From contig JAXHVD010000016.1 of NCBI GenBank assembly GCA_034189385.1, positions 38,735 to 102,734 of the forward strand: 64,000 nucleotides of DNA, written 5' to 3'. The translations under genes were made by a program, and so were the position numbers. Origin of the DNA: Thermodesulfobacteriota bacterium. Its GTDB lineage: Bacteria; Desulfobacterota; Desulfobacteria; Desulfobacterales; C00003060. The notes beneath the pieces were generated by a model. It saw only the letters and a program-made list of their open reading frames with translations. It ran no database searches and was not told the DNA's origin. Below are positions 756 through 55,835 of the stretch, piece by piece (within the stretch, counting starts at the first letter, position 1; every line of letters begins with the position of its first letter).

Positions 756-838
756 GGAAAGAGCCCCTCAACAACTCTCAAAAACGCGGTCAATCCCCGT
801 GCCTTGGACGGCTCATGGGGATATCTCGACCACTATTC

Positions 839-855
839 AGCCACAGTTGTGCCAA
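839..855 (-). promoter_or_regulatory. Putative sigma-54 promoter upstream of the ExeA ATPase
   Basis: Minus strand reads TTGGCACAACTGTGGCT (GG-N10-GC). Confidence 0.55.
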
Positions 856-916
856 TACTGCATCGCCTATAATTCATTGATGTCATTATTAATCCTGCCT
901 AGGTCTCCTTACCTTC

Positions 917-2485: not shown

Positions 2486-2500
2486 ACGTAAATCCTGGCT

Positions 2501-3790: not shown

Positions 3791-3935
3791 CACTAAGCCG
3801 GTTGAAACCGAACTGATAAAACGTATTGATAAGGAAGTTGTCATGGATCAGCTTTTTTCAACACAATTACGAAAACGCGAAAGCAGTAATGGTTAAAGGC
3901 TGAAGGACAGAAGTGGCTTCTTCCTCAGCCCCTTA

Positions 3936-4517
3936 TCATGGCACCACAATGGTGTCGTTTGGCTGCAGAATAATGTTCTCTTCCACTTTCTTGCCACCAA
4001 TGAAACCCTCGTAATCAAAACGGAGCTGCATCTCCCTCTTGTCGGTCCTCCGAATGATGAGGATGTTTTTTGTGTCTGCCCATTCTGCAAAGCCGCCTGC
4101 CGTGGAAATGGCCTGGAGGACGGTCATGTCCGCTGCCAACGGGTAGGCGCCAGGTCGATTCAGCTTGCCTACGGTATAGATGCGGCGGCTGTGACTCTCC
4201 CTGAGAATGACGGTTACCTCCGGTGCCGTGACGTAGGCCCTCAGTTTCTCGGTTATCGTTTCTTTGAGGGCTGTTACGGTTTGACCCTGGGCCATGATTT
4301 CTCCAATCAATGGAAACGTGATTCTCCCATCAGACATGACAGTAACATCCTGGGTCAGTTCTGGTTCTTTCCAGACATAGATATTCAGGATATCGCTGGG
4401 GCCCACGACATAAGACGGTGATTCTGCTCTTGCCAGGCAATGGTCTGTCCAACACGAAAGGCTGAGAATACAAATGCCCAGAGACAAGAGAACAATCCAC
4501 CTAGACATCCTTCTCAT
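3936..4517 (-). CDS. Polysaccharide biosynthesis/export protein (Wza-like, Poly_export + SLBB)
   Basis: YVVGPSDILNIYVW...DGRITFPLIG, LQPNDTIVVP; AGGAGG RBS before ATG 4517. Confidence 0.9.
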   Translation of the reverse strand: MRRMSRWIVLLSLGICILSLSCWTDHCLARAESPSYVVGPSDILNIYVWKEPELTQDVTVMSDGRITFPLIGEIMAQGQTVTALKETITEKLRAYVTAPEVTVILRESHSRRIYTVGKLNRPGAYPLAADMTVLQAISTAGGFAEWADTKNILIIRRTDKREMQLRFDYEGFIGGKKVEENIILQPNDTIVVP

Positions 4518-4582
4518 GGAATGACCTCCTAGGAAGAAGATGGTAAGATGAATGCCGAAAGGTCCTCGGCTGCCCCGTGAAA

Positions 4583-5623
4583 TCACGGTCGTTTCACCAG
4601 GGGGCTGCGATATTTGTTGTTCCTGATTCCCACGTTTGCCATCTTGTAGAACAGCGCCTTGTAACTGATCTTGAGGATCTTGGCTGCCTCTTTTTTGTTC
4701 CACCCCGTGAGATTGAGTGCATGCATGATGGCCTCCCTTTCAACATGTCTTGTGGCCTCAACCTTTAGGTCCTTTAGCGATTTCGGCGGGTTTCGTTCTA
4801 TGGTGTCCTTGGCCGGCAGCCCAGGCCCATCAGAGGACTCCGTAACGGCCTCGGCACGCATGTCGTCCGCGGCCATGTTGCTCAGAAGCTCAGAGCTAAC
4901 CTCTTCCTGGTTGTAGCCCACCATAAGCATGGCGATGGTGTTACTCAGTTCTCTCACGTTTCCAGGCCAGGCATAAGAGTCAAAGAGCTTTTTCAAATCT
5001 CCATCCAGGCGGAAGGGCTCTATCATCTCAAGGTCGCGACGGTGCTTTTCAACAAAGTATTTGGTCAACAAAGGAATGTCTCCTGTTCTATCTCGCAAAG
5101 GAGGGATGTCTATTTTGATGATATTCAAACGATAATAGAGGTCCACTCTGAAGAAGCCGTCCTTCATGTCTTTTTCCAGATCATGATTGGTCGCTGCGAT
5201 GACCCAGGAATTGACCTGGACATCTCTCGTACCACCAAGTCTGGAAAACCTTCCGCTCTGCAGTACCTCCAGGAGCTTGGCCTGGAGTACCACGGGCATG
5301 TCTCCGATCTCGTCCAAAAAGATGACGCCGTCTGATGCTAGTTCGAATTTTCCTGGTTTCAATTGGTCCGCCCCGGTGAAGGCACCCTTTTCGTAACCGA
5401 AAAGTTCGCTCTCAAGGAGCGTCATTGGAAGGGCAGGGCAGTTGACTTTAATAAACCTCTTATCGCGGCGGTTGGAGGCACGATGAAGTAACCTTGCTAC
5501 GACCTCCTTGCCGGTACCCGTCTCTCCCATGATGAGAACGTTGAAGGCAGTATCCGAGATCATGGTGATGAGCTCCCGGATTTTTTGGATAGACGGATGA
5601 TTGCCGATTAGGGCGTACTCCAT
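4583..5623 (-). CDS. Sigma-54-dependent transcriptional activator lacking an N-terminal sensory domain
   Basis: GETGTGKE, ESELFG, GAFTGA, FLDEIG, WPGNVREL, C-terminal Fis-type HTH; likely start MEYALIG. Confidence 0.9.
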   Translation of the reverse strand: MEYALIGNHPSIQKIRELITMISDTAFNVLIMGETGTGKEVVARLLHRASNRRDKRFIKVNCPALPMTLLESELFGYEKGAFTGADQLKPGKFELASDGVIFLDEIGDMPVVLQAKLLEVLQSGRFSRLGGTRDVQVNSWVIAATNHDLEKDMKDGFFRVDLYYRLNIIKIDIPPLRDRTGDIPLLTKYFVEKHRRDLEMIEPFRLDGDLKKLFDSYAWPGNVRELSNTIAMLMVGYNQEEVSSELLSNMAADDMRAEAVTESSDGPGLPAKDTIERNPPKSLKDLKVEATRHVEREAIMHALNLTGWNKKEAAKILKISYKALFYKMANVGIRNNKYRSPLVKRP

Positions 5624-6028
5624 AATGTGGCAAATTTTTACATAGGTTGGCGGGTTTGTCAATATTAAAGAAGGATTAGAGGTGGAAAGGGAAGTAACAC
5701 CCTGTTGGAGGGCAAGGGGCCGCCCTATTCGGGCCGTCGCCAAAATGCCTTTTCGCTTTTCTGAAACGTCTTTTGATCCGCCTTCGGAGGACTCCAGGGA
5801 TTAGCGCTGACGGTTGCGCCTGGTCGGTTGAAGAAAAGCACTGCCTGTACAAGATGCGCCCTTTCGGCTCAACCATTTGCAATTGCTGATCTTTCACTTT
5901 GCCGAAATTCGCGAGTCAAAAATGTTTCAATTCATCGCTTCAAAGGAATTTTTGCTTCGGCAATAGCCCACATTCATGGGACCCTGTGTAGGCTCGGCTA
6001 GCGGTGAATGGACACTGGCGGGGATCTA

Positions 6029-6083
6029 CAAAAAGCAAAGGCAGGGGAGACGCATCATCAATGCACCTGCCCTGCCTTTGCTT
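6029..6083 (-). terminator. Intrinsic terminator-like hairpin downstream of the arginine-repeat peptide gene
   Basis: 14-bp stem AAGCAAAGGCAGGG/CCCTGCCTTTGCTT followed by a T run on the minus strand. Confidence 0.6.
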
Positions 6084-6102
6084 AACCAGAGTGGAAAGAA
6101 GG

Positions 6103-6297
6103 TCAAAGTTGAAAGGCGGATCTTCGATCAAAGCTGCTTCTTCGCTCCATGCCGCTTCTTCGGTCTAGCCCGTTTCGGCGGTCGTCGCTGGCCCTTCTTT
6201 CAGGGATGTGGCCTGTGTACGAAAAGCGCCTCCGATCCACGCCCGAACGTCTCCCCCCGTTGTCACTCAATTTAACTGCCACGCTAGCCATTCCCAC
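6103..6297 (-). CDS. Small arginine-rich [DE]RR-repeat protein
   Basis: DNGGRRSGVDRRRFSYTGHIPERRASDDRRNGLDRRSGMERRSSFDRR; purine-rich upstream sequence, own terminator; start GTG 6297 or ATG 6291. Confidence 0.75.
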   Translation of the reverse strand: MGMASVAVKLSDNGGRRSGVDRRRFSYTGHIPERRASDDRRNGLDRRSGMERRSSFDRRSAFQL

Positions 6298-6609
6298 TTT
6301 CGGCCGTCCTTTTCTGAGACTGCGTTATGATTCTCCTTTATTCCTTAATTACCGTATGGCAGGTCACGGCGACCTGTTTTGAATAAATCAACTGACGATA
6401 TCTTCGAATTCCTCCATGTCAGGGTCAATGCCAATGTCTGCCCTTTTCTCACAAACCTGATAAAGCAATAATAGACTTGTGGACATAGACTTGTGGAGAT
6501 TTAGACTGTGATGAGTGTTTGGTGGCTAATCCCCGGTCCACCTATCCAACAGACAACAGTTCGATCTCTTGGCCCCCTTCACTCTTGTTACACTCAGGCG
6601 TGCATCAGT

Positions 6610-7191
6610 CTATTTCATTAAGGTTTTCCGAAGCTTCTTCCTGCCCAAAAGGCCGGCCAGACCGATCAGGCCTGTGCCCATAAGCAGCATGGAGGCTGGT
6701 TCTGGGACGGGGCTCTCTGGGCACTGGGTTGCCTCGACGACGAGCTTTGCCGATTCAAAGTAAAAATTTCCTCCCTTGGCTTCCAACATAGCATTAACAA
6801 TACCATCGTCGCTGAGAGTCAATTCCACGGCGGGTGAGAGCGCGAAGGGTAAGCCAGAGGTTGGGTACTCAAGTCTCCAGCCGCCGAATATGTCTGTCCC
6901 TACTGTTAGCTTCACCCATTCATGTGGAAAATCGGGGTTGTCTGGAGTATGATCACTAAGAGTTACGAAGACTTTAGCGGTACCAGGTACCACATTTTGA
7001 CAGTCTGGGTTGAATCCGTCATCAGTAAGATCAAATGTCCAACTATACTGATCCACGCTTCCGTCCGATAGATCAGCGTCCATAAAGACATCGGCGGGAT
7101 CCCAGATGTCTTCGATCGGAATAGCACTGGCTATGCCGACGGCAGAAAAAACCATGGCTATAGTGCATAAAAACACTAAAAACTTGTTCAT
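6610..7191 (-). CDS. PEP-CTERM sorting domain-containing surface protein
   Basis: Signal peptide; C-terminal VPEPASMLLMGTGLIGLAGLLGRKKLRK; AGGAGG RBS. Confidence 0.95.
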   Translation of the reverse strand: MNKFLVFLCTIAMVFSAVGIASAIPIEDIWDPADVFMDADLSDGSVDQYSWTFDLTDDGFNPDCQNVVPGTAKVFVTLSDHTPDNPDFPHEWVKLTVGTDIFGGWRLEYPTSGLPFALSPAVELTLSDDGIVNAMLEAKGGNFYFESAKLVVEATQCPESPVPEPASMLLMGTGLIGLAGLLGRKKLRKTLMK

Positions 7192-7371
7192 TGCAGTCCT
7201 CCTTCCCTGTCTCGGCCGATTAAGCAGTTAGTGCCTCAGTCCACTTCTCAGGCACCCGTACGTCTCTCGCCCCCCCTTTTGTTCGAGCGACGTGCCCAGT
7301 GGGAACTGTCGCTCTCTCGTGTTTCGGTATTCCCCCTTCGACTATTTGGACTAATGGTTTCAACAACATTT

Positions 7372-7387
7372 TGCAATAAACATGCCG
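7372..7387 (-). promoter_or_regulatory. Sigma-54 promoter of the PEP-CTERM gene
   Basis: Minus strand CGGCATGTTTATTGCA (GG-N10-GC with TTGCA). Confidence 0.8.
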
Positions 7388-7680
7388 ACCGGCAAAGAGC
7401 CTAAAAGAACAGAGCAATTACAATATTAAATCAAGGAAATAAAAGAGTTAAGGCGTAAGTCTCAATGAAGATCCACGAAAGGGCAAGGGCTCTCAAAAAG
7501 GGAGGATAGAGGTATGTATTTTATTGCCAACTATATGAGAAAAGTTATGCCAATATGTGGAAAAAGATTATATATGGATGTGGCGAACAATGGGAGGATC
7601 TGGAGCCCAAGTTGCGCAACGATCAGGAAATGGCGACAAAAGGCCTAAGACGAACGGACGGGGCGGGGAAAAAGGAGATG

Positions 7681-9087
7681 CTATGGTTTCAGATCAAATT
7701 CCTTGATACGGTTTAGGAGGGTCTTATAGCTCACCTGGAGCAATCGGGCAGCCTGTCTTCTGTTCCACTGAGTCTCGCTGAGAGCGTTCAAAATCGCCTC
7801 CCGCTCTGCTTGGGAAACATAGGCCTTGGATATCTTCTTCAAGGAGAAATCATTATCTCTAAAAAGCCTTGAAAGCTTGTCGTCACGCCAATCAGAACCT
7901 TGAGACTCAACCTCAGATAAAGAGCCACTCTCTACGCTGTGGACTCCCATATGTAGGTTTAGATCTTTAAAAGCAAAATCCCAACTTCTAAGGACAATGG
8001 CCCGACGGATCACATTCTCAAGCTCTCTCACATTGCCGGGCCATTCGTAGGCCAAGAAAAGCTCAGCGATCTCATCGGGTATGTCCATGACCCCTTTTCT
8101 GAGCTCAAAGCAATACTTGTTCATAAAGTAGTGGGTCAAGAAAGGGATATCTTCTTTTCTCGTTCTAAGGGAGGGGACATCCATGGCCACCACCTTCAGG
8201 CGGTAGAACAGATCCTTTCTAAAAGACCCTTCCAGCACCTTCTGCTGGAGATCTGAATTCGTAGCAGCCAACACGCGGATATCCATGGCTTCGTCTTCTG
8301 TGCCGCCAAGGGGTGAAAAGGCTTCCCCTTCAAAGATCTGAAGCAGTTTAACCTGCAAAGACAAGGAAAGATCGCCGATTTCGTCAATAAACAGGGTTCC
8401 TCCCGCTGCCAGCTGAAGACGCCCGGGCTTGTCTTTATGGGCCCCCGTAAAAGCCCCTCTCTGAAAACCGAAGACCTCACTCTCTAGCAAGTCGTCAGGG
8501 AGAGCCCCGCAATTCACCTTCACCAGTGCGCCTTTTCGCCGATAGGAATGATAGTGGATAGAACGGGCTATCAGCTCCTTGCCAGTACCGGTCTCCCCCG
8601 TGATCAATACGGTGACGTCCTTGTGGGCCACCTTTCGAATTTTTTCCCTGATGTTCATCAGTTGAGGGCTTTGTCCAACAATGACCACGGGGCTGTCGTC
8701 TAAAGGGCCTCGGGCAGCTCGCTGTTTCCATGCCTTGTGTATGGCCCTTGATATCTCGTCAAGGTCCGGATCTGGGCTCAGGTGATGGATTGTACCGCTA
8801 GGGGAATGATCAGATCCGTTCAAAAGCAACGCCTCTTCACAGGAGGTCAAAATCGGCATTACAGGGTCAATCAATCCCAAATTGTGAATGTTCTTCAGGC
8901 AGGTTTGTGTTTCTACAGAAGGCCCGATAATGGCCAAATCAGGACTCAAAGAGGCCAGTTGCTCGGCAGACCTATCGGGGGGCGCGGTAGAACAAAGCTT
9001 GAATCCCAGGCCTCTGACCTTTTCCTGCAAGATTTGGGAACGGGAAGGATCTGACTCAACCACAAGAATGTTCGGATTGGCTTTCAT
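7681..9087 (-). CDS. Sigma-54-dependent activator with a degenerate receiver domain
   Basis: REC-like N-terminus lacking the phospho-Asp (DLAIIGP), GETGTGKE, GAFTGA, WPGNVREL, HTH. Confidence 0.9.
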   Translation of the reverse strand: MKANPNILVVESDPSRSQILQEKVRGLGFKLCSTAPPDRSAEQLASLSPDLAIIGPSVETQTCLKNIHNLGLIDPVMPILTSCEEALLLNGSDHSPSGTIHHLSPDPDLDEISRAIHKAWKQRAARGPLDDSPVVIVGQSPQLMNIREKIRKVAHKDVTVLITGETGTGKELIARSIHYHSYRRKGALVKVNCGALPDDLLESEVFGFQRGAFTGAHKDKPGRLQLAAGGTLFIDEIGDLSLSLQVKLLQIFEGEAFSPLGGTEDEAMDIRVLAATNSDLQQKVLEGSFRKDLFYRLKVVAMDVPSLRTRKEDIPFLTHYFMNKYCFELRKGVMDIPDEIAELFLAYEWPGNVRELENVIRRAIVLRSWDFAFKDLNLHMGVHSVESGSLSEVESQGSDWRDDKLSRLFRDNDFSLKKISKAYVSQAEREAILNALSETQWNRRQAARLLQVSYKTLLNRIKEFDLKP

Positions 9088-9191
9088 AAGTCTCTCCTGT
9101 GGGCCTTGATATTGGCAAAGTCTGTCCTTATCTTTCCGTTCAACGATTCAAGAGTGGACCTCACTGCCCTGAAGAAACATGGCAAGCGCCA

Positions 9192-9578
9192 CTACTTTTT
9201 CTCTTGCTGCATGAGGAGCCTAGCTATATGATCCTTCAGAACCGACATCTTGAAAGGCTTGGCCAGCACCAGGTCTGCCTTCTTTTCCGTGGCCGCCATT
9301 TCGGGCTCCTTGCCATAACCCGTGATGGCGATCACGGGGATATGTGGGGTTTTTTTCTTAATCGCCGTGATCATTCCCACTCCACTCACGTAGGGCATGA
9401 CAATGTCTGTGACCACTAGGTCATAACCTCCTGATTCTAGCATCTTTAACCCTTCCATACCATCGGAAGCTGCCAAGACCTCGTAGCCCAGGCGTCTCAG
9501 ATGCTTGGCGATTACTGAGAGGATATCAGAGTCGTCTTCTATTACTAAAATCGTCCTTTTTTGAGACGTCTTATTCAT
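9192..9578 (-). CDS. Single-domain response regulator
   Basis: ILVIEDD, VVTDIVMP, AITG, AKPF. Confidence 0.9.
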   Translation of the reverse strand: MNKTSQKRTILVIEDDSDILSVIAKHLRRLGYEVLAASDGMEGLKMLESGGYDLVVTDIVMPYVSGVGMITAIKKKTPHIPVIAITGYGKEPEMAATEKKADLVLAKPFKMSVLKDHIARLLMQQEKK

Positions 9579-9593
9579 TGTCAGATTCTTGTC

Positions 9594-11906
9594 TCAGGAT
9601 GTGCCTGAGGCCTGAATTTGTTTCAGGATACTGCGTGCCTCATCTGCGCCGTCGAAGTCCTGGGCTATATCAAGTGCCTTTTGTAGGAACTCTAGGGATC
9701 TTTCGGGCTCGTTGTTCTTATAAAAGGCAAGGCCTAAATGGTAGTTGATCACTGGATTGTCAGGCTCTAGTTCCAAGCTGTCCTGAAATTCCGCAATAGC
9801 GCTCAAGTAGCTTCCCTTTAAATAGTATATCCAACCCAGGGTGTCCATGGTGGAGCTGCTCTCAGGCATATTCTCCTTGGCGATTTGTGCCAATCCCAAG
9901 GCTTCATCAATGTTGCCTCCCCGTTGTGCCAGATTCCAGGCTAGGTTGTTGGCTGCAGGCGCAAAATCGTCTTTTAGCTCCAATGCCTTTCTGTAATAGG
10001 ATTCGGCCTTTTCGGCATTGCCCCGTTGATCATAGATAGTGCCCAGGGCCATGTAACCTGCCACGTAGTTCGGATTCTTATCCAAAACCTCCTCAAATTG
10101 AGAAATGGCCTCTGTCAACCTGTCCTCTTTCACGTAGATCTTGGCCAAGGCCACATAGGGAGCCAGAATGTTTTCTTGCGTCTCAATGGCCTTTTCAAAG
10201 TGTTGTTGGGCTTTAGTCAAATCCTCCTGGGACCAAAAAATCGTCCCTTCCAGGTATTCGATCCATGCCAAGTTAGAAGGAGACTCTGAGGCCTTTCCCT
10301 TGTATTCCTCACATAGTTGAAGAGCTTCGTCATATCTTTTGTCTTGCAGTTGCACACGCACCATGTGGGCGAGGGCATCGGTCCGGTGAGGATCCAACTC
10401 CAGCACCTTTTTCAAGGATTTCAGCGCCTCGTGGCGTCGATTTGTGACACTATAAAGAAACCCAAGACGCAGATGAGCAGATACAGAGTCGGGGTCAAGA
10501 TCAAGGGCCTTCTTGAAAAGGGCCTCCGCTTGCTTTGTGTCTTTTTCCAGGGTGTTCAGATTTCCTTTCAGAATCAGGGCCGGAACATGAGAGGGAGCCT
10601 GGCCGAGTACTGTCTCTATTTGCTGATCAGCCAGGTTCAATCTCCTGTTACGAAGATATATCTCTGCTAACACGAGCCTGGCATCTAACTGACGAGGGCC
10701 CATCTCTATGGCCTTCACCAGGTCGTGTTCAGCGAGCTTTCGTTTCCCTTTTGCCATGAGGCACAAGGCCTTGTAATAGTAGGCTCTGGCATTATCGGGG
10801 TTTTCTCTCACCACCAGGTCAAGTCGCTTAAGGGCATTGTCAACATCTTCTCTCGCCAGATAAAGCCTTCCCTTTAAGAAACTTGCTTCCACGTGCCCCT
10901 TGTCTTTTTCTAAGACTTGATCGACGAGTTCTTCAGCCGCGCCCGTCTTTTGGAAACGGAGATACAACTTTGCCATGGCCAAGAGGATCTCCGGATCCCC
11001 CTTCTTTATCTTCAAAGCCTTCTCCATGGTCTCTAGGGCTTTGTCAAAGGATTGCCTTCGGGCATAATGCCGAGCCAGCTCCATCAGGGGCGCAATGTCC
11101 TCCTGGGATGCGGCATTGACTGCCTCCAAGTACGTCTTCTCCGACTCCTCCCATCTTTTTTGGGTCTCGTAGAAGAATGCGAGTATAATGAGATCTTGTT
11201 CCTTGGAGGCAGAGGCATCCACCATCTTTTTCAGCTCTGACTCGGCGTTATCCCATTCCCCCTTCGTGCCGTAGATGCGAGAGAGCTCCACGCGAGGCTT
11301 GCGTGCAGATGGCTCCACGGACAGGGCCATTAAATAGGCCTTCTCCGCCCCTTCAATATCGCCGGTGAGGAGCAGCAGGCGGGCGAGCGATAGGTTCGCC
11401 TGAAAATGCTTGGGGTCCATGGAAGTGGCCTGCTGCAATGTCTTTATGGCAGCGTCCACATGGTTTTCCATGACCTCTACATCTGATAGCAGTAACAGGG
11501 CCTCTATGTTTTGGGGTGATTCTTGTAAGACAATCTCGGCCTTTTCCCTGGCATCGTCAGGCTGTTTCCCTAGCAGAAAGATTTGTCCCATCTTCAGCTG
11601 GGCCTTGAGGTCTTCTGGGTTGATGGATACAGCACGGGAAAATGATTTAAAGGCCTCTTGGCCTTGTTTCAACTTGAGATAGGTCTCGCCCAGCTCGTAG
11701 CAAGCAGCACTGTTTTCAGGGTGCAGCTGAAGCACGTTCTTGAATTCAATGACCGCCTTTTTGAGTTCATTCCTTTCAACATATTGTTTTGCTCTTTCAA
11801 GGTGTTTCGCTGCCCGCTCTTCCTTGCTGGCGCACCCGATGAGAACAAACAAAAAAAGGACTGGCACCATCCAGAGTTGTCTAGTCTTCCATGTATTCGT
11901 TCTCAT
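9594..11906 (-). CDS. TPR-repeat lipoprotein (PrsT-like, PEP-CTERM system)
   Basis: Lipobox LIGC, many TPRs, AANNLAW...DTLGWIYY tail; AGGAGAGG RBS before ATG 11906. Confidence 0.85.
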   Translation of the reverse strand: MRTNTWKTRQLWMVPVLFLFVLIGCASKEERAAKHLERAKQYVERNELKKAVIEFKNVLQLHPENSAACYELGETYLKLKQGQEAFKSFSRAVSINPEDLKAQLKMGQIFLLGKQPDDAREKAEIVLQESPQNIEALLLLSDVEVMENHVDAAIKTLQQATSMDPKHFQANLSLARLLLLTGDIEGAEKAYLMALSVEPSARKPRVELSRIYGTKGEWDNAESELKKMVDASASKEQDLIILAFFYETQKRWEESEKTYLEAVNAASQEDIAPLMELARHYARRQSFDKALETMEKALKIKKGDPEILLAMAKLYLRFQKTGAAEELVDQVLEKDKGHVEASFLKGRLYLAREDVDNALKRLDLVVRENPDNARAYYYKALCLMAKGKRKLAEHDLVKAIEMGPRQLDARLVLAEIYLRNRRLNLADQQIETVLGQAPSHVPALILKGNLNTLEKDTKQAEALFKKALDLDPDSVSAHLRLGFLYSVTNRRHEALKSLKKVLELDPHRTDALAHMVRVQLQDKRYDEALQLCEEYKGKASESPSNLAWIEYLEGTIFWSQEDLTKAQQHFEKAIETQENILAPYVALAKIYVKEDRLTEAISQFEEVLDKNPNYVAGYMALGTIYDQRGNAEKAESYYRKALELKDDFAPAANNLAWNLAQRGGNIDEALGLAQIAKENMPESSSTMDTLGWIYYLKGSYLSAIAEFQDSLELEPDNPVINYHLGLAFYKNNEPERSLEFLQKALDIAQDFDGADEARSILKQIQASGTS

Positions 11907-12154
11907 GTTGCCCCTCTCCTTTGGAATCATGGCCGAGACAAGTCTTGGGGCACAGTTGGGCAGACTGCGGATAGCTAGCCTGTCTTGACGCCGAACATCC
12001 AAGTGCTTTCCTCCCAAAATGCGCAATGTCCTTTGCGTAAGACCTTTTACCATTTCATCTAGTTGGCACATACAGGATAGAACCCGATGTAATCATTGTC
12101 AAACTGATTCTTTTTCTAATCATAGAAGAGGGTGGAGTGATCGCATCGGCCGTA

Positions 12155-17212: not shown

Positions 17213-19162
17213 TCATCTTACAGAGAGTTCGTGGACTGCATCGACCAATTCAGCCACATTTTCGGGAGGCATGTCTGGCAAGATCCCATGGCCGAGATTG
17301 AAGATGTGCCCTGGCCGGGCTGCCGCCTTGTCCAATATAGCTTGAACGTGGGCCCATATTTCCTTCGGTGACGCATAAAGGACGATGGGGTCCATGTTGC
17401 CCATGACGGCCACATCATCGCCGAGGACAGACCAGGCTTGGGCAAGATCACAACGCCAATCAAGGCCGATTACATGGCCACCTGCCTCTTTCATCAGGGG
17501 TAAGAGAGCTGGATTGCCCGTGCTGAAATGAATAACCGGCACGGACCTGTCAAGCCCTTGTATGAGGCGTTTTACGTGAGGCATGACGAACTGGCAATAG
17601 TCATCAGGCGACAGGGAACCGACCCAACTGTCAAAGAGCTGGAGGGCGTTAGCCCCGGCGGCAATTTGTCCGTTTAGGTACGCAATCAGCACCTCCACCA
17701 GGCGTTCCATAAGTCTGTGCCATGTGGCCTTCTCCCGGTACATCATCGTCTTGGTTTTGACGTAGTGGCTAGATTTGCCTCCTTCAATCATGTAAGAGGC
17801 AATCGTAAAAGGGGCACCGGCAAAGCCGATTAATGCCACATCAGGCGGTAGGGCGCGACGGGTGATCTTTAGGGCATCAAAGACATAGGCCAATTCATCG
17901 ATGCTGGGTTCCCTCAGTCGCTCCACGTCTTGTCCAGTCCGTATTGGATTGTGGATGACAGGGCCTTCGCCTTTAAGGAATTCCAGGGCAAGTCCCATGG
18001 GCTCAGCAACGAGAAGAATGTCGGCAAAGATGATTGCCGCGTCCACGCCAAGGCGCTCCACGGCCATCAATGTGACCTCTGCTGCCAGTTCCGGCGTCTT
18101 GCAGAGCTCCAACATGGTCACCCTTTTCCGAATTCTTAGGTATTCACGCTGGTACCGCCCAGCCTGTCTCATGATCCATATGGGCGTGTATGGTGTTGGC
18201 TCCCGTCTGCATGCCTTCATGAATACGGAATCATCAATGCTAGGCTGTCCGTGGACACGGGGCTCCCACACCATATCAATGCGCCGCCACTTGTTCGTAT
18301 CCACCTTGTTCGCAAAGGCTGTCCGCTTTTTGTGGAGTAAGTCCCCCCCGCGGCGGGCCATCTCTCTCACAAGGTGGGGCATTCTGGGAGCATCGGGTTC
18401 GTAGTCCACGGCCAATCCTTTTTCGGCAATGGCTCTACTCGCAGTGGGTCCGACGGATCCGATGCAGACTTTAGCGAAGGCCGCCCGGAGCTTGTCTTCA
18501 AGCCCGTCTATCTTCGCTACCTTGAAAAGGTGCCGCACTTGGGTGGCGCTGGTAAACAACGCCACATCGGCCTGTCCCTCGCCGTTGCCAAGGATGAGGC
18601 GAATAGCCCTGCGAATGGGCTCTAAGTCTTCAGGGAGCTCCCACCTATAGACGGGAACAGCCAATATTTGGGCGCCGCGCTCCTCCAATGCCTTGATCAA
18701 ATCAGGATCAGACTGCCCATATTCCTGGACGGCCACGCGTTTGTTCTCCAAAGGGTATTTCTCGTCGAATATGGTGAGCAGGTCCGTCACTGTATGCGGT
18801 TTTGCAACAGGCATGGTGGGGGCTAGCCCCATCTCTCGGAGCGCCGCCACGGCCTTAGGTCCAAGGGCAAAAGTGTCTACCCTCTTGAGGGCGTCAATGA
18901 ACTCCTGAACGTCGTACTTGGTCGACACAGTTTGAACGAGCAGTCGGGTGCCAACCCCTGTCAACAGAATCAACGCGTCGATCCAGCCGGCCAGCAGAAG
19001 TTTGGCAAAGGTCAGGGCTTCACTATTGTGCTCAAGAGGCACTTCACGCATGCTTGGAGCTATGAGTGGCTCCCCCCCAGCCTCCCGGATGAGCTCTTCC
19101 ATCTCATCGGAATGCCGACTTTCAAAGGAAACCACTCTGAGGCCTTTAAAATCTACTGGCAT
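17213..19162 (-). CDS. hemE: Fused uroporphyrinogen-III synthase (HemD) and uroporphyrinogen decarboxylase (HemE)
   Basis: N-terminal HemD (FESR, VPVYRW, FTSATQV, VGP); C-terminal HemE (PIWIMRQAGRY, IFADIL, GFAGAPFT, FNLGHGI). Confidence 0.92.
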   Translation of the reverse strand: MPVDFKGLRVVSFESRHSDEMEELIREAGGEPLIAPSMREVPLEHNSEALTFAKLLLAGWIDALILLTGVGTRLLVQTVSTKYDVQEFIDALKRVDTFALGPKAVAALREMGLAPTMPVAKPHTVTDLLTIFDEKYPLENKRVAVQEYGQSDPDLIKALEERGAQILAVPVYRWELPEDLEPIRRAIRLILGNGEGQADVALFTSATQVRHLFKVAKIDGLEDKLRAAFAKVCIGSVGPTASRAIAEKGLAVDYEPDAPRMPHLVREMARRGGDLLHKKRTAFANKVDTNKWRRIDMVWEPRVHGQPSIDDSVFMKACRREPTPYTPIWIMRQAGRYQREYLRIRKRVTMLELCKTPELAAEVTLMAVERLGVDAAIIFADILLVAEPMGLALEFLKGEGPVIHNPIRTGQDVERLREPSIDELAYVFDALKITRRALPPDVALIGFAGAPFTIASYMIEGGKSSHYVKTKTMMYREKATWHRLMERLVEVLIAYLNGQIAAGANALQLFDSWVGSLSPDDYCQFVMPHVKRLIQGLDRSVPVIHFSTGNPALLPLMKEAGGHVIGLDWRCDLAQAWSVLGDDVAVMGNMDPIVLYASPKEIWAHVQAILDKAAARPGHIFNLGHGILPDMPPENVAELVDAVHELSVR

Positions 19163-19309: not shown

Positions 19310-19372
19310 GCATAAATAGACTATAGGAAAAAGGGGGCAATCTGTCAAGAGGCAAGGAAAGGTATCGTGCTG

Positions 19373-20377
19373 TTACCCAAGAACCTCAATGCTCTCCGCT
19401 GGACAGGTTATCCACACAGGGTCTCCAACGCCTAGATCCATACCACTGAAGACATCTTTGGGCACTAGAACGCTTAAGAGCATCCCGACGTCAACATGGG
19501 CCCTCACCCGGTTCTCTTCGTCAGCCAGTTGAACGAGCCTCCCCTGGAAAGTGTTGTCCTCAGAACTCCCACTTCGCGAAAGCCTTACCGCCCTCGGATC
19601 AATACAGATTCGAACCCGGCCTAATTTTTCAGACTGCACACGCAGCCTCAGTCCGTTTTGGAGCACGGAGTACTTCCAGGGATCCTCATCAAGTTCCATG
19701 TGAGCACTGAAGATGTTTTCATAGGTAGACCGTGCCTTTTTTCCCTCGAACAGGAACACAGTCTCTTCTGCAATCCTTGACGCTTGGATCATGTCATGAG
19801 TCGTAAAGATGACTGAAATCCCTTTTGTCCGGTTGATATCCCGGATGGTGCGCTCGATAGCCATCTGGTTTTCCACGTCCACGTTGGCAGTGGGTTCGTC
19901 CAATAGAATAACTTCCGGATAACAGGCAAGGGCCTGTGCTATGGCCACGCGCTGTGTCTCGCCTCCCGATAGCCTGTGGGCTCTTGCATCCCCCAACGCC
20001 TCCATTCCCACGAGGTTTAGGAGATCCTCAACGATTTGTTTCCTCGCCCTTTTAGGCGTCTTCCGTATTCTTAAAGGGAGTTCCACGTTTCTTGAAACGG
20101 TAGTGGTGAACAAGATAGCGTGCTGCTGAACGAGGACCACCTTTTGCCGAAGGCCCATAAGACTGTTGCCTGTGAAATCGACTTTCCGGCCATCAAACCA
20201 CATTTCTCCGGACGTGGGACTGGAAAGAAAGGCCATTATCTCCAAGAGCGTGGTCTTCCCCGCACCATTTGGACCCTGGAGGACCAGAATCTTCCCTTTG
20301 CCAAGAGATAGTGCTTCCAGGTCCAGAACCGTTCGTCCCTCGTACCGCTTCTTTACGTTCTTCATCGCATAGAGCAT
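19373..20377 (-). CDS. tupC: Tungstate ABC transporter ATP-binding protein with C-terminal TOBE-like domain
   Basis: GPNGAGKTT, LSGGE, LLDEPTAN; operon context. Confidence 0.85.
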   Translation of the reverse strand: MLYAMKNVKKRYEGRTVLDLEALSLGKGKILVLQGPNGAGKTTLLEIMAFLSSPTSGEMWFDGRKVDFTGNSLMGLRQKVVLVQQHAILFTTTVSRNVELPLRIRKTPKRARKQIVEDLLNLVGMEALGDARAHRLSGGETQRVAIAQALACYPEVILLDEPTANVDVENQMAIERTIRDINRTKGISVIFTTHDMIQASRIAEETVFLFEGKKARSTYENIFSAHMELDEDPWKYSVLQNGLRLRVQSEKLGRVRICIDPRAVRLSRSGSSEDNTFQGRLVQLADEENRVRAHVDVGMLLSVLVPKDVFSGMDLGVGDPVWITCPAESIEVLG

Positions 20378-20382
20378 GGAAG

Positions 20383-21078
20383 TTATACCCTCGCCTTGCC
20401 CTGAAAATAGTTAAAAAAGAGGTTTACCGCAAAGCTTACAGTGAGGAGCACGATGCCCAGTGCCACACTGAGTACGAACAACCCCTTGTCATACTCCAGA
20501 GCCATAGCTGTGGTCATTGTACGGGTGAATCCCTTGGCGTTGCCGCCCAGCATCATACTGATTCCAACCTCGGCGATGACCCTTCCGAAGGCAGCAATGA
20601 TGGCTGCTGCAATGCCAAACCTGGCTTCCCGAAGGATCAGCCATGCTGTCTGTAAAAGGTTGGCCCCAAGGGTAAGGGCCGTCTTACGATAACGCTCATC
20701 TATGCGGCTAATAGCTGCAATGGTGAAAGTAGTAACGATAGGAACGATGAGGATGACCTGGCCGATGACCATGGCTTTCTGCGTGTAAAGAAGGTCATAC
20801 ACCCCAAAGACCCCTCTTCTAGAGATGAAGGCATAAACGAAGAGGCCCACTACGACAGTAGGCAGAGATAGCAACGTGTTGAGTATGGTAATGAGCAAAC
20901 GCCTTCCACGAAATTCAGTAAAAGCGATGAGAAATCCAGTTGGAACCCCTACAATGCTGGCAATGAGCGTGGACGTGGAACTCACCTTCAAAGACACATA
21001 GACAACAACAAGGAACTCCGGGTCCATGGACCAAATGAGGGACGCCGCAGACAAGAAGCTGTCGATGAAAAAATCCAT
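20383..21078 (-). CDS. tupB: Tungstate ABC transporter permease
   Basis: LPTVVVGL, FGRVIAEVG, GGN...TRTMTTA. Confidence 0.92.
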   Translation of the reverse strand: MDFFIDSFLSAASLIWSMDPEFLVVVYVSLKVSSTSTLIASIVGVPTGFLIAFTEFRGRRLLITILNTLLSLPTVVVGLFVYAFISRRGVFGVYDLLYTQKAMVIGQVILIVPIVTTFTIAAISRIDERYRKTALTLGANLLQTAWLILREARFGIAAAIIAAFGRVIAEVGISMMLGGNAKGFTRTMTTAMALEYDKGLFVLSVALGIVLLTVSFAVNLFFNYFQGKARV

Positions 21079-21121
21079 AAAGTCTATCTACTATCTCTCC
21101 CAGGATTGCGCGGGTCGGAGA

Positions 21122-22027
21122 TTATTTCAGTGTAGAAATGACATCCGGAAAGAACGCCTGTTGACCCTCGATCTTGTACTGGGCAATGAGATGCTGGGCC
21201 TTTGGGGACACCAGCCAGTTAGCAAGCCGATCTGCCCACTGGAATTTGACGTGAGGATGCTTCTTGGGATCAACAGGGATAATGCCATAAGGATTAAACA
21301 GTCTGTTGTCTCCTTGACAGAGAATCTCGAGATCCAGGCCTCCCTTTCTGCCGAACTTGTACTTCAAATAGGTCCCCCGATCAGCCATGGTGTAGGCCTG
21401 TTTCTCCTCGGCATAGGTAAGGGCCTTGCCCATCCCCTGTCCGATGGAATGGTACCACTGGCCCAGTCCCTCGGGATGTTGGGAAGAGAAGCTGTGCTTT
21501 TTCAGGTTTTTCACAATTTGTACAGTCTCTGTCTTAAGAGGCAAGCCGGTGGCCTTCCACAGGGACTGTTCTTTAGTGTGGGTGCCACTGTCGTCTCCTC
21601 GAGACACAAAGGCAGCTCCTTTTTCAGCAATTTTCTTCAGTGCCATGGGCGCATCATGCATCCCCTTGATCTCTGCGGGGTCTGTGAAAGGCCCGAGAAT
21701 AACGAAATCGTTATGCATGACCCCTAATCGGTATGCGCCGTAACCGTCGGCCACGAATCTCTCTTCTCTATCCTTGGCGTGGACAAAGACAATGTCCACA
21801 TTGCCGTCCATGCCGTCACGGATGGCTGCGCCCGTTCCTTTTGCAAAGACCTTGACGCGAATTCCGGTCTCCTCGGTGAAGTGGGGAAGTAACATGTCTA
21901 GGAGCCCAGAGTTCTCAGTGCTCGTGGTCGTGGCCATTTTAAGGACGTTCTCTGTTGCGTTGGCAATACCAGGAATCATGAAGAGTCCCATGGTGACTGT
22001 GATAATCCATAGGATCTGTCTTTGCAT
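21122..22027 (-). CDS. tupA: Tungstate ABC transporter substrate-binding protein
   Basis: ATTTS signature, SGLL, FVSRGDDSGTH, GQGMG, DRGTY, NPY. Confidence 0.95.
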   Translation of the reverse strand: MQRQILWIITVTMGLFMIPGIANATENVLKMATTTSTENSGLLDMLLPHFTEETGIRVKVFAKGTGAAIRDGMDGNVDIVFVHAKDREERFVADGYGAYRLGVMHNDFVILGPFTDPAEIKGMHDAPMALKKIAEKGAAFVSRGDDSGTHTKEQSLWKATGLPLKTETVQIVKNLKKHSFSSQHPEGLGQWYHSIGQGMGKALTYAEEKQAYTMADRGTYLKYKFGRKGGLDLEILCQGDNRLFNPYGIIPVDPKKHPHVKFQWADRLANWLVSPKAQHLIAQYKIEGQQAFFPDVISTLK

Positions 22028-22030
22028 GTC

Positions 22031-22969
22031 TCATCTCCCCTTGTTTGGTGGTGACTGTTGTGGAAATACCATCTTTCCGGCCAGGCTCAGATCGTAGCCC
22101 TCGATTTGCTGGGAAAGCTCCCCGAAGGCTTGCTCGTGGAGAAGACCCACAAAAAGCTGGACCCCTTCTTCGAAGAAGTGATCCTTAGAAATGAGGAGAT
22201 CGTAGCGCTCCCAGCGAAGAGGGACAAAGTCTAGCCCCAAAAGATGGGCAACCGGTCGGATGGCGGGCGCAGCGTCAGCCCGTCCAGACAGCACCTCAAG
22301 ACCCACGTCCATGTGGCTCCGGAACTCACGTTCGTAACCCGTTACCTGCCGGCCTTTCATGCCTGCCTTCTGAAGCCCTCGGTCAAGGAGAAGCCGAGTG
22401 CCGGTCCCGACCGGGCGATTGGCGATCTTTGTTCCTGGCTGATCCAGATCAGGAATGCCTTTGATCCCCTTGGGGTTTCCTTTGGACACCAGAAGCCCTT
22501 GTTCTCGTCTGCAGAAGTTTACCAAAGCCGGCAAGTCTCCCTTGAACTCCTGAAAGGCAAACTCGAAGTTGTAGTCTTCCTCATTTTCCTGGAGAAGATG
22601 ACTTGAGGCTATGTGACAGAGGCCCCGGCTAAGGGCCTTTAGCCCCCCCTGACTTCCAAGATTCCCGAACACTGCGATATGGTCTCCGTAGAGTTGGTTG
22701 AAGAGGGATATGCTTCGGTCCAGTAAGATGTCGTTACTCCCGCTAATGATGAGCAAGCCTTCATAAGGAGGCAGGCGATGTGCACCGTGAGGGTAGTTAA
22801 TGGTCTGGTTCTCCAGCCAACGTTCCACCAGGTGCTTGGGGAAGAGCCATTTTCCCGTCACCTTGGTGGCTGGAAGTCCCTTGTCAGCGATGAGGGAATA
22901 GACCATCTTCTCATTGATGTCCAAAAAATGGGAGATCTCCTTGGTGTTAAGCAGTGCCCTTTCCTTCAT
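22031..22969 (-). CDS. Excisionase-type HTH plus PBP-like domain transcriptional regulator (molybdate/tungstate-associated)
   Basis: LNTKEISHFLDINEKMVY...KVTGKWLFP; GSND, GSQGGL, REQGL, NRPVGTGTR, ERYDL. Confidence 0.85.
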   Translation of the reverse strand: MKERALLNTKEISHFLDINEKMVYSLIADKGLPATKVTGKWLFPKHLVERWLENQTINYPHGAHRLPPYEGLLIISGSNDILLDRSISLFNQLYGDHIAVFGNLGSQGGLKALSRGLCHIASSHLLQENEEDYNFEFAFQEFKGDLPALVNFCRREQGLLVSKGNPKGIKGIPDLDQPGTKIANRPVGTGTRLLLDRGLQKAGMKGRQVTGYEREFRSHMDVGLEVLSGRADAAPAIRPVAHLLGLDFVPLRWERYDLLISKDHFFEEGVQLFVGLLHEQAFGELSQQIEGYDLSLAGKMVFPQQSPPNKGR

Positions 22970-23191
22970 GCCCTTCTCCTTTCTTGGAAAGGATTGGACC
23001 ATATCTGTAAGAATAAGTCAATTTAAACCATTCTGGGGCAGAACGATTACTGTCTCATACGGTGCCTGTGCACGAACGCTAAGAGGAGGTGGTCGCTGAG
23101 AACGGCAGGGTAGGGGGCGGCCATGGGCGAGGGATGGCACCCTACGTTTGATGACTCCTGGAAGGCAGAAAACATGGTTTGGGGTGAGAAC

Positions 23192-23233
23192 AGGCGTCCC
23201 TTTCCTGAAACACACTTCAGAAAAGGGGCGCCT
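23192..23233 (-). terminator. Hairpin directly after the diheme protein gene (terminator or stabilising stem)
   Basis: AGGCGTCCCTTTCCTGAA/TTCAGAAAAGGGGCGCCT near-perfect inverted repeat. Confidence 0.6.
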
Positions 23234-23241
23234 AGTATTCG

Positions 23242-24966
23242 TCAGAGACTATTTAGGACCGTGTCAATAAAGCACGAACTGCCGCCGCCGCCTGATTTTT
23301 TCTTCACCTCAGGAACAGCCAAGGCGGTGGGGTCCGTAATGGTACCATCCTCAAGGCCGTCTCCGTCGGTGAGTGGATCTCCGTCCGTAAGGGTTACGGT
23401 AACACTGTCTGGGCCGTTCTTTGTGTGGGGTATCTCTCGCCATCCATCCACGGCATCGATCTTATAGACCTCGGCCCTTGCTGGCACGTCGTCTGGGAAG
23501 ACCATGGTAAGGGTCACCGATTCTCCTGGATTTAGGCCCGTAATCTTCAACTTGATGGTTCCGTAAGGAAAGCTGGATGCGGGCTTTCCCTCTTGGGGAA
23601 CGGCCAGGTCCTCGTCGCCTAGGGCTTCTATATTTGTGAAGGCACCACCGGACGTGTGGAGACAGACCTTGTCAATGCCGTTGGCGTGTCTTACAAGGGC
23701 CGTATCCGTGTCTTGGTAGTCAGGAGTGCCATCGCCGTCGAAGTCGCTATTTCCGTCAGTCCCTTCCTCGCTGTCCAAAACACCGTTTCCGTTGGAATCG
23801 GATCCGTCTATGGCGCCGTAGACGATGATCTTGGCCTGATCCACATAGCCCCATCCCGCCTCCAGTTTGTTGATATCTGTGGTTCCTTCCGGCAAGGGCT
23901 CCACGCGAACGATTGTGGCAGAACGGGAGGCTGCCCCCTTGTTGTGGTCCCAGGAAGATTCATAAGGCCAGATCACATCCTGATTTACCGCCCTACTACC
24001 CTGATCCGGGGGGCCGGGATTCTTCTGAGGAGGGACCACCCTATAGGGCCCTTCGCCATCCAGCTTGTTGTCTTCGTTTAAGATCCCGGGCTGTAGGTAC
24101 ACGCCGTCGCGCTTGTAGGCAACGATCATTTTAAGCCCGCCTGATACCTGAATGGGATCTCCGTCATCTCGGCCTTTGGCTGATGGGGCGCTATAGTCAC
24201 ACCACCCGTCTTCAGGGTTTAAGGCAATGTCCGCCTCCTCATGGTAGTAATAGACTGCTTCTGGATACACACCGTTCACATGATAGAATTCGGCCTCCTC
24301 TGGGTCCTCTTCCAAAGGATGGTAGTTGGACCAGCCGTCCGGGGCAAAGACCGTGATGCTTGTTGCGGTCTCCAACATGCCCGCATCCTGTAACAAATCC
24401 TCCATGGGAACCCCTTTGTACTCCACGTAATCGTCGGTCTGGCGCGAGGCGTTCATGAGCATGAACTGGCTGTGGCCAGGCATGGCGGCCAACTGGGCCT
24501 TTGTGTAGACGCGATAAGGGGCAGCCACTTTGCTCGGGTCGTCATCGGCATCGCCAGGAAAGCGGTCTGCCGCGATCTCTGCCCCATTGGCATAACCGTC
24601 TTCATCAGAGTCCTCACTATTGATGGCCTCTATGGCAGCAGCGTTTCTGCCCTTGTCTTTATAGTCTATGCCGTAAGGATTCATGGTCTCGGCGATATCG
24701 CCAGCACCGTCATATCCATAGCTGTAGTGGCACCACTGGCAACTTCCCAGACTCACCCATTTAGGATCTTCATCCGTACCCTTATTGTATTGGCCCCCGC
24801 TGTGGCACAGGGCACAGTGATCCAGCTTTGTTCCTGCCTTCTCAGAATAGACATCTAAGAATTTGGCTGCGTCTCGCTCTCCTTCGTGATGATAGGCGGC
24901 GAAAAGAGGAGACACCAATAAGACAATGAGAAGCACCGTTCCCGTGAACACGATTGTACACTTCAT
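23242..24966 (-). CDS. Secreted diheme cytochrome c with GEGP motif, molybdopterin-oxidoreductase-like domain and Gly-rich CFI C-terminus
   Basis: Sec-like signal peptide, CALCH and CQWCH, DGEGPYRVVPP, DxDxDG repeats, C-terminal KKKSGGGGSSCFIDT. Confidence 0.85.
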   Translation of the reverse strand: MKCTIVFTGTVLLIVLLVSPLFAAYHHEGERDAAKFLDVYSEKAGTKLDHCALCHSGGQYNKGTDEDPKWVSLGSCQWCHYSYGYDGAGDIAETMNPYGIDYKDKGRNAAAIEAINSEDSDEDGYANGAEIAADRFPGDADDDPSKVAAPYRVYTKAQLAAMPGHSQFMLMNASRQTDDYVEYKGVPMEDLLQDAGMLETATSITVFAPDGWSNYHPLEEDPEEAEFYHVNGVYPEAVYYYHEEADIALNPEDGWCDYSAPSAKGRDDGDPIQVSGGLKMIVAYKRDGVYLQPGILNEDNKLDGEGPYRVVPPQKNPGPPDQGSRAVNQDVIWPYESSWDHNKGAASRSATIVRVEPLPEGTTDINKLEAGWGYVDQAKIIVYGAIDGSDSNGNGVLDSEEGTDGNSDFDGDGTPDYQDTDTALVRHANGIDKVCLHTSGGAFTNIEALGDEDLAVPQEGKPASSFPYGTIKLKITGLNPGESVTLTMVFPDDVPARAEVYKIDAVDGWREIPHTKNGPDSVTVTLTDGDPLTDGDGLEDGTITDPTALAVPEVKKKSGGGGSSCFIDTVLNSL

Positions 24967-25120
24967 TTTCTTTCTCCTCTATGCATGGCGAGAAGTCAAT
25001 TCCTCTTCTCGGAAAGAGAAAAACACCTGTCTGGCACCCAAAGAGAACAGGCAATCCTTACCCCACAGTGCCTGCCCCTTGCGAAAAATGATCGATCCTT
25101 TGCTGCTGGGGACGCACCCG

Positions 25121-26743
25121 TCAAAAACGGAACTGAAACCGCCCCGTGAACACATCCTCACGGTCACTGTATACGGCCTCCCCGGTAATGGGGTCCCGGT
25201 CAATGAGCAAGGGCTGGTCAAAATCTGTCCTAGTGGCATCAAGGACCAAACGAACCGTTTCATCCAGATACCAATTGAGGGCAATGGTGTAGGCGTCTGC
25301 CTCCCGCACTGAATTGCCCGCTTCCACCAAGACGTCGTAGGCAATATCATCGGCCTCAAAGGCATCGTAGCGAAAGGCCAGCCCCACAGCCCCACAGCCC
25401 CCTTCCCAGAGACTCCTCTTCGGCGAGATGGATTGGAAGACCCCCTTCCGAAGGATCGGCTTCTCCCCTGTGAGCATCCAAAGAAGTGAGACATAGTAGT
25501 CGTCCATCTCAAAGTCGAACTGTTCCGCGCTGGTGGTAATGTCTTTATAGAAGACATGGAAGTATTCCCCTGCCAAGGCTACAGGGCCCATGGTCCAGGC
25601 CAGTTCAGCCCCGTAGCGAAAACAGTCGTCGGCATCCCGGATAATATTGAACTTGCCCCTGGAGGCCACGTCAAAAAAGGTGGTCATACCGGTGGTCTTC
25701 ACTTGGATCTCCACGTTGTTGCGGTCGATCTTGGCGTATGACATGGACCCGCCTATCTGAAAACTGTCCCACCAGGGCATCTCCTGGCCCCAAAAGGGGG
25801 CCAGAACCCACCGTCCTGTGTATTCCGGGGAATCCACATCACCCCCTGGGGTGTCGTCAAGGCCGTCGCCGTTGAAGATACCAAGACCGTAATGGACCTG
25901 ATCGTCCAACAAGGACCCGTGGGCCATGAACCCCACGTCCCGACGGGGCGTAAGGTAGAATCCCATGGATCTCTCGGCAAAAAAACCGAGGCTGTCCAAG
26001 TTGCAGTGCTCGAGACTAAAGGGTTCCTTGAACTGCCCTATTCTGAAGGAGGCATAGGGAGACAGATGGGCATCCACGTAGGCGTCCAATAGATTGCGGG
26101 CCTCGGCCCCTTCGAATTCATACTCGAATTCGTACTCATAGCGACCAAGGGCCTCGCCGGTGACCAGCAAGCGCGTCCTGCGGAGATCGAATCTATCCTC
26201 TTCCGGGTCTCCTTCTTCATAGTCATAATACCGATAATCGGCCTGAAGAAGGCCTCCAAGGCACAAGGTGAAGCGTTCTGGTTCAAAGGTGTTGAGACAG
26301 AATCCATTTTTGTAGGAGGCTTCAACAGGTGTCTTCTCTTCAGTCTTTTTACCAAGGGATGGGGTCTTTGGGGGTGGGGCCTCACCTTGTCCCTCTACAG
26401 TTGTTGAGGCAGCAGGAAGCTTTCCTGGTGGGGAGACTTGCCTGTGGGAGAGGGCCGATTCTTTGGCCTTTAGGGCTGCCTCTTTCTCTTCAAGCTCCTT
26501 TTGCCACCTTTTGAGGGTCTTTTCCCTTTCATCCATCTCTTTTTCTTGTCGCAACAGACGCTTCTGGTCCTCGGCCATGGCTTCGTTGATTGCCTGGAGT
26601 TCTGAGGCCGTAATGACGCCCTTATCTTCAAAGATTTCAAGGAGCTTCTCGATTGCCAGGTTGGTTGCCAAGGATGGTTGGGCCGTCCCCAAGGCCAGGG
26701 AGGCAAAAAGAATCAAGATCAAAAGGGTCTGCCATACCTTCAT
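25121..26743 (-). CDS. OprO/OprP-family oxyanion-selective porin
   Basis: Signal peptide, coiled coil, FDLRRTRL, LDAYV, RIGQFKEPFSLE, ERS, C-terminal Phe. Confidence 0.85.
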   Translation of the reverse strand: MKVWQTLLILILFASLALGTAQPSLATNLAIEKLLEIFEDKGVITASELQAINEAMAEDQKRLLRQEKEMDEREKTLKRWQKELEEKEAALKAKESALSHRQVSPPGKLPAASTTVEGQGEAPPPKTPSLGKKTEEKTPVEASYKNGFCLNTFEPERFTLCLGGLLQADYRYYDYEEGDPEEDRFDLRRTRLLVTGEALGRYEYEFEYEFEGAEARNLLDAYVDAHLSPYASFRIGQFKEPFSLEHCNLDSLGFFAERSMGFYLTPRRDVGFMAHGSLLDDQVHYGLGIFNGDGLDDTPGGDVDSPEYTGRWVLAPFWGQEMPWWDSFQIGGSMSYAKIDRNNVEIQVKTTGMTTFFDVASRGKFNIIRDADDCFRYGAELAWTMGPVALAGEYFHVFYKDITTSAEQFDFEMDDYYVSLLWMLTGEKPILRKGVFQSISPKRSLWEGGCGAVGLAFRYDAFEADDIAYDVLVEAGNSVREADAYTIALNWYLDETVRLVLDATRTDFDQPLLIDRDPITGEAVYSDREDVFTGRFQFRF

Positions 26744-27063
26744 GCGTTTGCCCTTTCCCCGTCACGGCTTTTTGTTCGCAAGAGGAAGATGCCACATTAG
26801 AACCTGTGGCGCTCACACCTGTTCATGTTATCCCGGTGGCCCAAGGGGCCCTTGGATGGTGTCCAGGTATCCAGATTTGAAAGATGAGTCATACCTATAA
26901 CGGCTTCGTCAGCTATTGTCAATATTATCTAACTTGTCCTTGCTAGAGTAACTAAAACGCCCCTAGAATTACTTGAACTTACATAGCGATGTGTGCCGAG
27001 ATAAAGACCGGGTGGAAGAAAAGGGCCCTGCCTTTCTGGTGTGTTTCAACATGATTCAGGGGG

Positions 27064-52322: not shown

Positions 52323-52581
52323 AGAGAAGAGACCGTCGCACCTGCTGCTAGCCATGTGCTTAATAGGGGCTCTGTTGTTTTTGTTTTCTCTGGGGTACAC
52401 CTTGCGGCCCACTGGCTGGGTCGAGCTTGCCTTAAAATCCCTGTTCCACCAAGGCCAATGCTCATCCAGCCGGGAGCCCTTTCCGTGGCCCATTGTATCA
52501 TGAAGGGTGCGGTCAATTTCGGTTGGGACACCGTGATTCAGGCTCCGGGCAAAGCATGCTCTCAAAAACAGAAAAAAACCT

Positions 52582-55799: not shown

Positions 55800-55835
55800 T
55801 TGTTTGTGCGCCATACTTGTGTATAGGGGTAATAT

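Follow-up and report, generated by a model that had tools for sequence, protein, structure and literature searches.

How does tungsten cross the outer membrane, and how is it supplied where sulfide ties it up? Both steps are poorly known; the inner-membrane step, carried out by TupABC, is characterised. The question concerns organisms with many tungsten enzymes, and it is raised by six genes on the minus strand of a 64,000-nucleotide stretch from a Thermodesulfobacteriota bacterium (contig JAXHVD010000016.1, assembly GCA_034189385.1), here called the window. A gene for an OprO/OprP-family outer-membrane anion porin (25121..26743) is followed by genes for a diheme protein with a GEGP motif (23242..24966), a regulator (22031..23002) and the importer components tupA (21122..22027), tupB (20383..21078) and tupC (19373..20377), with gaps of 154, 239, 3, 43 and 5 bp. 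This run, with heme genes after it, is arranged as a preliminary description made from the sequence alone had given it. The locus is real and conserved, a TaoR-type regulator and TupABC system to which a front end in the outer membrane and an uncharacterised, likely surface-located cytochrome are added. It most plausibly represents a tungsten/molybdenum uptake operon, in which a likely surface-anchored diheme protein would bind tungsten or molybdenum species and supply both the porin and the TupABC-type importer, and this account is given somewhat better than even chances. That the locus belongs to tungsten/molybdenum biology at all is held with high confidence; the remaining doubt concerns the job of the diheme protein.

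Gene neighbourhoods of the porin-diheme pair

Related loci were collected as 25 regions from genomes of the phylum and the best 80 of 181 from a scan of species genomes; after removal of two duplicates, 103 loci remained, forming 72 clusters at 75% identity. By tblastn, the porin is found at 78 loci, a TupA-type protein at 32, the regulator at 21, WtpA at five, ModA at three, and MOT1 and a TunR-like protein at two each; 37 loci carry some tungsten/molybdenum transporter (WtpA and ModA were identified with NCBIfam and Pfam). The porin gene lies directly upstream of the diheme gene, in the same orientation, at 72 of the 98 loci with enough flanking sequence. The porin-diheme pair makes up the conserved core, and its tungsten/molybdenum partners are frequent and interchangeable. 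Where at least 6 kb is available on each side, a transporter lies within the flanks at 21 of 54 loci; the same queries give three transporter loci in the whole 4.13 Mb of the host, a density at which about 1.5% of 20-kb intervals would contain one. The enrichment spans three unrelated transport systems, and the recurrence of TupA, WtpA, ModA, MOT1 and TunR-like proteins supports a link of the pair to tungsten/molybdenum uptake. The preliminary description had offered homologs unlinked to tup or mod genes as grounds for dropping its proposal, and the neighbourhoods do not supply them. TupA is also encoded in 22 of 24 carrier genomes, a count made without a control set.

The diheme family is uncommon in the phylum, with hits over the NF041762 cut-off in 25 of 401 sampled Desulfobacterota genomes. 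Record titles place the relatives mostly in Desulfobacterota and the hosts among anaerobes of sulfidic habitats; cultured carriers include Desulfatibacillum alkenivorans and Desulfonema magnum.

The heme genes do not share this conservation. A hemD-hemE fusion begins 210 bp past tupC, followed by hemH and hemY, and the preliminary description had counted this operon in the module. Heme genes are found by tblastn near the diheme gene at none of the 103 loci, and a promoter-like site (TTGACA-17-TATAGT, 11 of 12; 19320..19348, minus strand) precedes the operon and marks the module boundary. The operon is treated as a chance neighbour outside the conserved unit because it is missing at all related loci and has its own promoter match, although that single match is weak, being the best of five found by the scanner when 4.4 are expected. 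Genomes of the sulfate-reducer type usually make heme through siroheme, and the fusion, hemH and hemY (window positions 17213-19162) are noteworthy in their own right as genes of the protoporphyrin or coproporphyrin route.

A shared candidate operator

Expectation maximisation over 66 deduplicated porin-upstream regions found the motif GTTATTwwwr, repeated directly every 10 bp in three to four units, at a log-likelihood of 459; three local shuffles gave 141-173. The repeat usually ends 20-40 bp before a TTGAC box at -35, a placement that fits activation of uptake genes under metal scarcity. The window carries four in-phase units, one of them degenerate, as a candidate operator (26943..26982, minus strand) ahead of a sigma-70-like porin-gene promoter read from the sequence (TTGACA, 17 nt, TATAGG; 26894..26922, minus strand), which is absent from the output of the promoter scanner, whose rule requires a final T.

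The matrix used for scanning was built anew on 43 sites from other genomes, with the window site excluded. The top site of the whole host genome (26.4 bits, contig C23) stands before an AlgE-like porin gene followed by modA, modB and modC. A site of at least 8 bits with TTGAC after it occurs at only three places in that genome, namely in the window, on C23 and at one unrelated position. A held-out test compared 23 diheme genes that lack a porin with 140 control regions: a site of at least 12 bits lies upstream in nine of the former and in four of the latter, and the nine include two near-duplicates and one close to the training loci. Across 1.64 Mb of loci, 78 sites were found, with 51 before porins (mostly training regions), 11 before diheme genes, five before tupA, wtpA, modA or regulator genes and 11 before other or no gene; two of this last group precede regulator genes. 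Five further genomes gave 43 pattern matches, and rescoring of 30 of these yielded nine distinct places of at least 12 bits, two of them unrelated; sites stand before a porin, a diheme gene, a regulator, tupA, an AlgE-like porin with modA and two TonB-receptor genes. None of the three host aor genes has the repeat. The pair thus appears tied to tungsten/molybdenum uptake also by a common candidate operator, which supports the link made from the neighbourhoods.

The C23 genes (L138:2466-6830) form a second porin-transporter operon, with the AlgE-like porin belonging to PF13372, and an AlgE-like porin paired with modA also has a repeat site in L190. The TonB-dependent receptor genes (L188/L193 and L200) carry the repeat and TTGACA at the same spacing, and one faces a Peripla_BP_2 gene; their products are candidate receptors for tungsten/molybdenum complexes.

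Proteins of the HTH_17 type are known to bind head-to-tail repeats. Given this habit, and since the repeat precedes regulator genes, the one-component window regulator, with HTH_17 (PF12728, 43 bits) and PBP_like (PF12727, 210 bits) domains, is the putative binding protein. TaoR has the same architecture (PMC11980592). TaoR (DVU3193) of Desulfovibrio likewise lies beside tupABC, and its tungstate-dependent control and link to tupABC have been described (PMC11980592, PMC10102598, PMC12327845). The likeness is one of architecture; the window adds the porin and diheme genes in front, and the host repeat is not found at its aor genes. The novelty claimed in the preliminary description was overstated on these counts, since NCBIfam already names the family of the diheme protein, and the regulator shares its architecture with the characterised TaoR. 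TaoR regulons across Deltaproteobacteria were reportedly reconstructed by Rajeev et al. in 2019, and that work may already include the repeat and the genes.

Porin, importer and diheme protein

The porin (540 aa, with an N-terminal coiled coil) matches PF07396 at 125.5 bits and the OprO structure 4rjw with an E value of 3e-12. Basic residues are kept over 61 linked porins (R188, R189, R191, K239, R258, R268, K364, R376 and R535), and the family match together with these channel residues places it in OprO/OprP. TupA carries the TTTS motif, as previously noted, and matches solved tungstate-binding proteins (3lr1, E 1.5e-70; 5my5, E 4e-67). TupB scores over the cut-off of NF038017 (226.6 bits), and TupC is an ATPase (PF00005, 109 bits) whose C-terminal TOBE-like part is a weak match (PF03459, 21.4 bits), with WtpC and TupC models both under cut-off. 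All three components fall below the NCBIfam equivalog cut-offs (NF041772, 227 of 400 bits; NF041773, 200 of 320; TupC, 139 of 400). Judged by these matches, the importer works like TupABC yet sits outside the narrow models. TupA-like proteins without TTTS adjoin the diheme gene or a canonical TupA in L033, L096, L114, L127, L053 and L054.

The diheme protein (574 aa) scores 447 bits against the curated cut-off of 300 for NF041762. It comprises a signal peptide (about residues 1-23, by eye), CxxCH motifs at 51-55 and 76-80, a sulfite-oxidase (SUOX)-fold domain without the molybdenum cysteine (148-358, with the GEGP motif at G304-P307), DxDxDG repeats, a choice-of-anchor U domain (462-551) and a short Gly-rich CFI tail. 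The heme and SUOX-fold parts, modelled together, form a single compact unit (predicted template modelling score, pTM, 0.89). The best fold matches are the cysteine-less, pterin-binding PruR proteins, in keeping with the "pterin domain" proposed earlier; PruR leads true enzymes with Z scores of 11.7 against 10.4, at 15-19% identity. Over 73 sequences, both CxxCH motifs, His27 and many polar residues are invariant, D178, D210, R309 and D321 of the fold domain among them; N172, H341 and R/K348 are conserved. The site of the molybdenum-coordinating cysteine aligns to N172 (a weak profile match, probability 17%) and is Asn or Asp, with cysteine in none of the 73; C256, the sole cysteine of the domain, is kept in 38. 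Neither a dimerisation domain of the sulfite oxidase family nor a catalytic cysteine or metal site was identified in the protein.

Exported molybdenum-cofactor enzymes are known to travel by the twin-arginine (Tat) route with cofactor bound, and a twin-arginine pattern occurs in none of 199 N-termini. A cofactor-loaded redox enzyme is weakened because the cysteine and the Tat signal are both absent, and the protein differs in the same features, and in the undetected dimerisation domain, from SorA/SorB, SoxCD and MsrP/YedY. A location at the cell surface is likely because a signal peptide is combined with swappable surface anchors; some members occur in cell-wall-anchored forms. The short tail of the window protein does not match NF041770 (CFI-box-CTERM), and two of three close relatives tested match it over cut-off. 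PruR of Agrobacterium, Vibrio and Klebsiella is likewise an exported SUOX fold without the molybdenum cysteine; it is small and heme-less, has Trp at the cysteine site and signals to DcpA (PMC11194511, PMC13259868). The diheme protein instead has Asn at that site, carries two hemes and large insertions, and ends in a surface tail. Its family is named, with no function in the sources; fold, missing cysteine, porin pairing and operator are added here, giving it a functional context and, after PruR, providing another use for the cysteine-less SUOX fold. A small secreted stand-alone monoheme protein, kin of the GEGP heme part, is encoded elsewhere in the host (L139:2240-2653, contig C14).

Among papers within reach of a literature search, to which most subscription papers did not belong, none was found on the GEGP diheme protein or on an excisionase, tungstate and direct repeat together, and none was on topic by its listing for tupA, tungstate, porin and cytochrome c. 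CFI-box does not occur in the 20 of 36 matches listed, and a term search of bioRxiv 10.1101/2023.06.07.544157 gave no hit for CFI, heme, tungsten or porin.

The task of the diheme protein

Under the uptake explanation, the regulator would bind the repeat and sense tungstate or molybdate. The diheme protein would be exported by Sec, receive its hemes in the periplasm and be anchored to the surface through its C-terminal tail. Its emptied cofactor pocket (D178, D210, R309 and D321, with N172, H341 and R/K348) could bind the oxyanion itself or a species in which it is joined to sulfur or pterin, the hemes may keep this ligand in its redox state or alter it, and free oxyanion would pass through the porin to TupA and then TupBC. 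Of the envelope-spanning pathway drawn in the preliminary description, the tungsten/molybdenum link holds through neighbourhood and operator and the surface placement looks likely; the heme operon drops out. A bolder version is rather doubtful: the GEGP protein as the first dedicated cell-surface tungsten-mobilising cytochrome, using a cofactor-emptied molybdoenzyme fold and two hemes to capture thio- or pterin-bound metal in sulfidic habitats and release oxyanion to its own porin, in a regulon that includes TonB-dependent uptake of tungsten/molybdenum complexes.

Several results weigh against the uptake explanation. Porin, regulator and TupA occur jointly at only 9 of 103 loci, 33 of the 54 well-flanked loci have no transporter nearby, and the porin is missing at 25 of 103, so the diheme protein does not need one. 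The window operator is weak (9.1 bits, rank 24 in the host genome; 0.4% of random 571-bp windows score as high). A full-length regulator was identified in just 12 of the 24 carriers, and one genome with a strong site (L033, G140) shows none, so another binding factor is possible. AOR-family genes are common anyway (24 of 24 carriers, 58 of 74 non-carriers), and these counts are of related genomes, not independent samples. The role of the diheme protein is predicted from genes, fold and motif, and the protein may sit at the outer surface or in the periplasm.

The leading alternative, itself unlikely, is the stronger form of the proposal in the preliminary description and has the hemes oxidise thiotungstate, thiomolybdate or sulfide-mineral-bound metal to free oxyanion for the porin and TupA. 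Tungsten and molybdenum form thio-salts in sulfide, and the sulfidic habitats in the record titles, the invariant CxxCH motifs, His27 as a possible sixth ligand and the compact heme-SUOX model fit this idea. Against it, no catalytic cysteine or metal site was identified, and the clusters of neighbouring genes do not include a conserved electron partner.

Less likely again is an envelope redox enzyme or metal buffer that shares its regulation with the uptake genes without itself serving uptake, such as a tungsten-loaded enzyme assembled extracellularly or a sink against molybdate toxicity. The porin-less loci, the cell-wall-anchored forms, the active-site-like invariant polar residues and the description of TaoR as a tungstoenzyme regulator (PMC11980592) favour it; the host repeat marks uptake operons and no aor gene, and pairing with an anion porin is tight in three quarters of loci.

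Lower still stands a scavenger of pterin or of ready-made molybdo- or tungstopterin cofactor, a surface version of PruR. PruR, pterin-binding and cysteine-less (PMC11194511), is the best fold match, and in two relatives genes for TonB receptors and for binding proteins of the siderophore/cobalamin type have the repeat upstream, in keeping with uptake of complexes. However, the lead of PruR over true enzymes is about one Z unit, its Pro-Trp motif and a dcpA-type partner are absent (Asn/Asp at the site, regulator and tup genes downstream), and MoaA/B, in two related loci, are the only recurring pterin genes. OprO/P channels, moreover, are narrow anion channels. In Desulfatibacillum-like L031 and L032/L134, a siderophore/cobalamin-type ABC transporter (Peripla_BP_2, FecCD and ATPase) lies directly upstream of the porin-diheme pair.

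Very improbable is service to another anion (phosphate, selenite) or to electron transfer, as with the Geobacter OprO/P-like porin ExtI, which is clustered with c-type cytochromes and tied to oxyanion handling (PMC5877670). The window porin is of the phosphate-porin family and matches the ExtI model NF040900 weakly (27 bits, cut-off 150); the ExtI system itself is a multi-gene cluster for selenite/tellurite reduction with no tungsten/molybdenum link. Against this reading, the diheme protein has two hemes only, no pst or ext genes are among the annotated recurring neighbours, and the enrichment over TupA, WtpA, ModA and MOT1 and the common repeat point elsewhere.

For the uptake explanation, the porin, the surface diheme protein and the TonB receptors are offered as candidates for the outer step, with an operator sequence that defines the regulon; operator, second porin-modABC operon and TonB-receptor sites make the outer-membrane step directly testable.

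Other genes recur near the pair. A PF00696 protein, of the amino-acid-kinase fold that is also the fold of molybdenum storage proteins, occurs in 7 of 103 loci (L051, L053, L055, L060, L096, L100 and L110). Seven loci (L033, L058, L061, L069, L093, L100 and L114) encode a protein of about 255 aa that looks cytoplasmic and matches neither Pfam nor NCBIfam, once, in L058, with the repeat upstream. In one lineage (L040, L041, L047, L048, L049, L051 and L052), the diheme gene is followed by a gene for a secreted protein of 130 aa that matches no family. The remaining window genes look housekeeping by eye. Inspection by eye also shows a cluster of the exopolysaccharide/PEP-CTERM type (1-12071), which includes a long TPR protein, and an ATP synthase operon (52356-58653).
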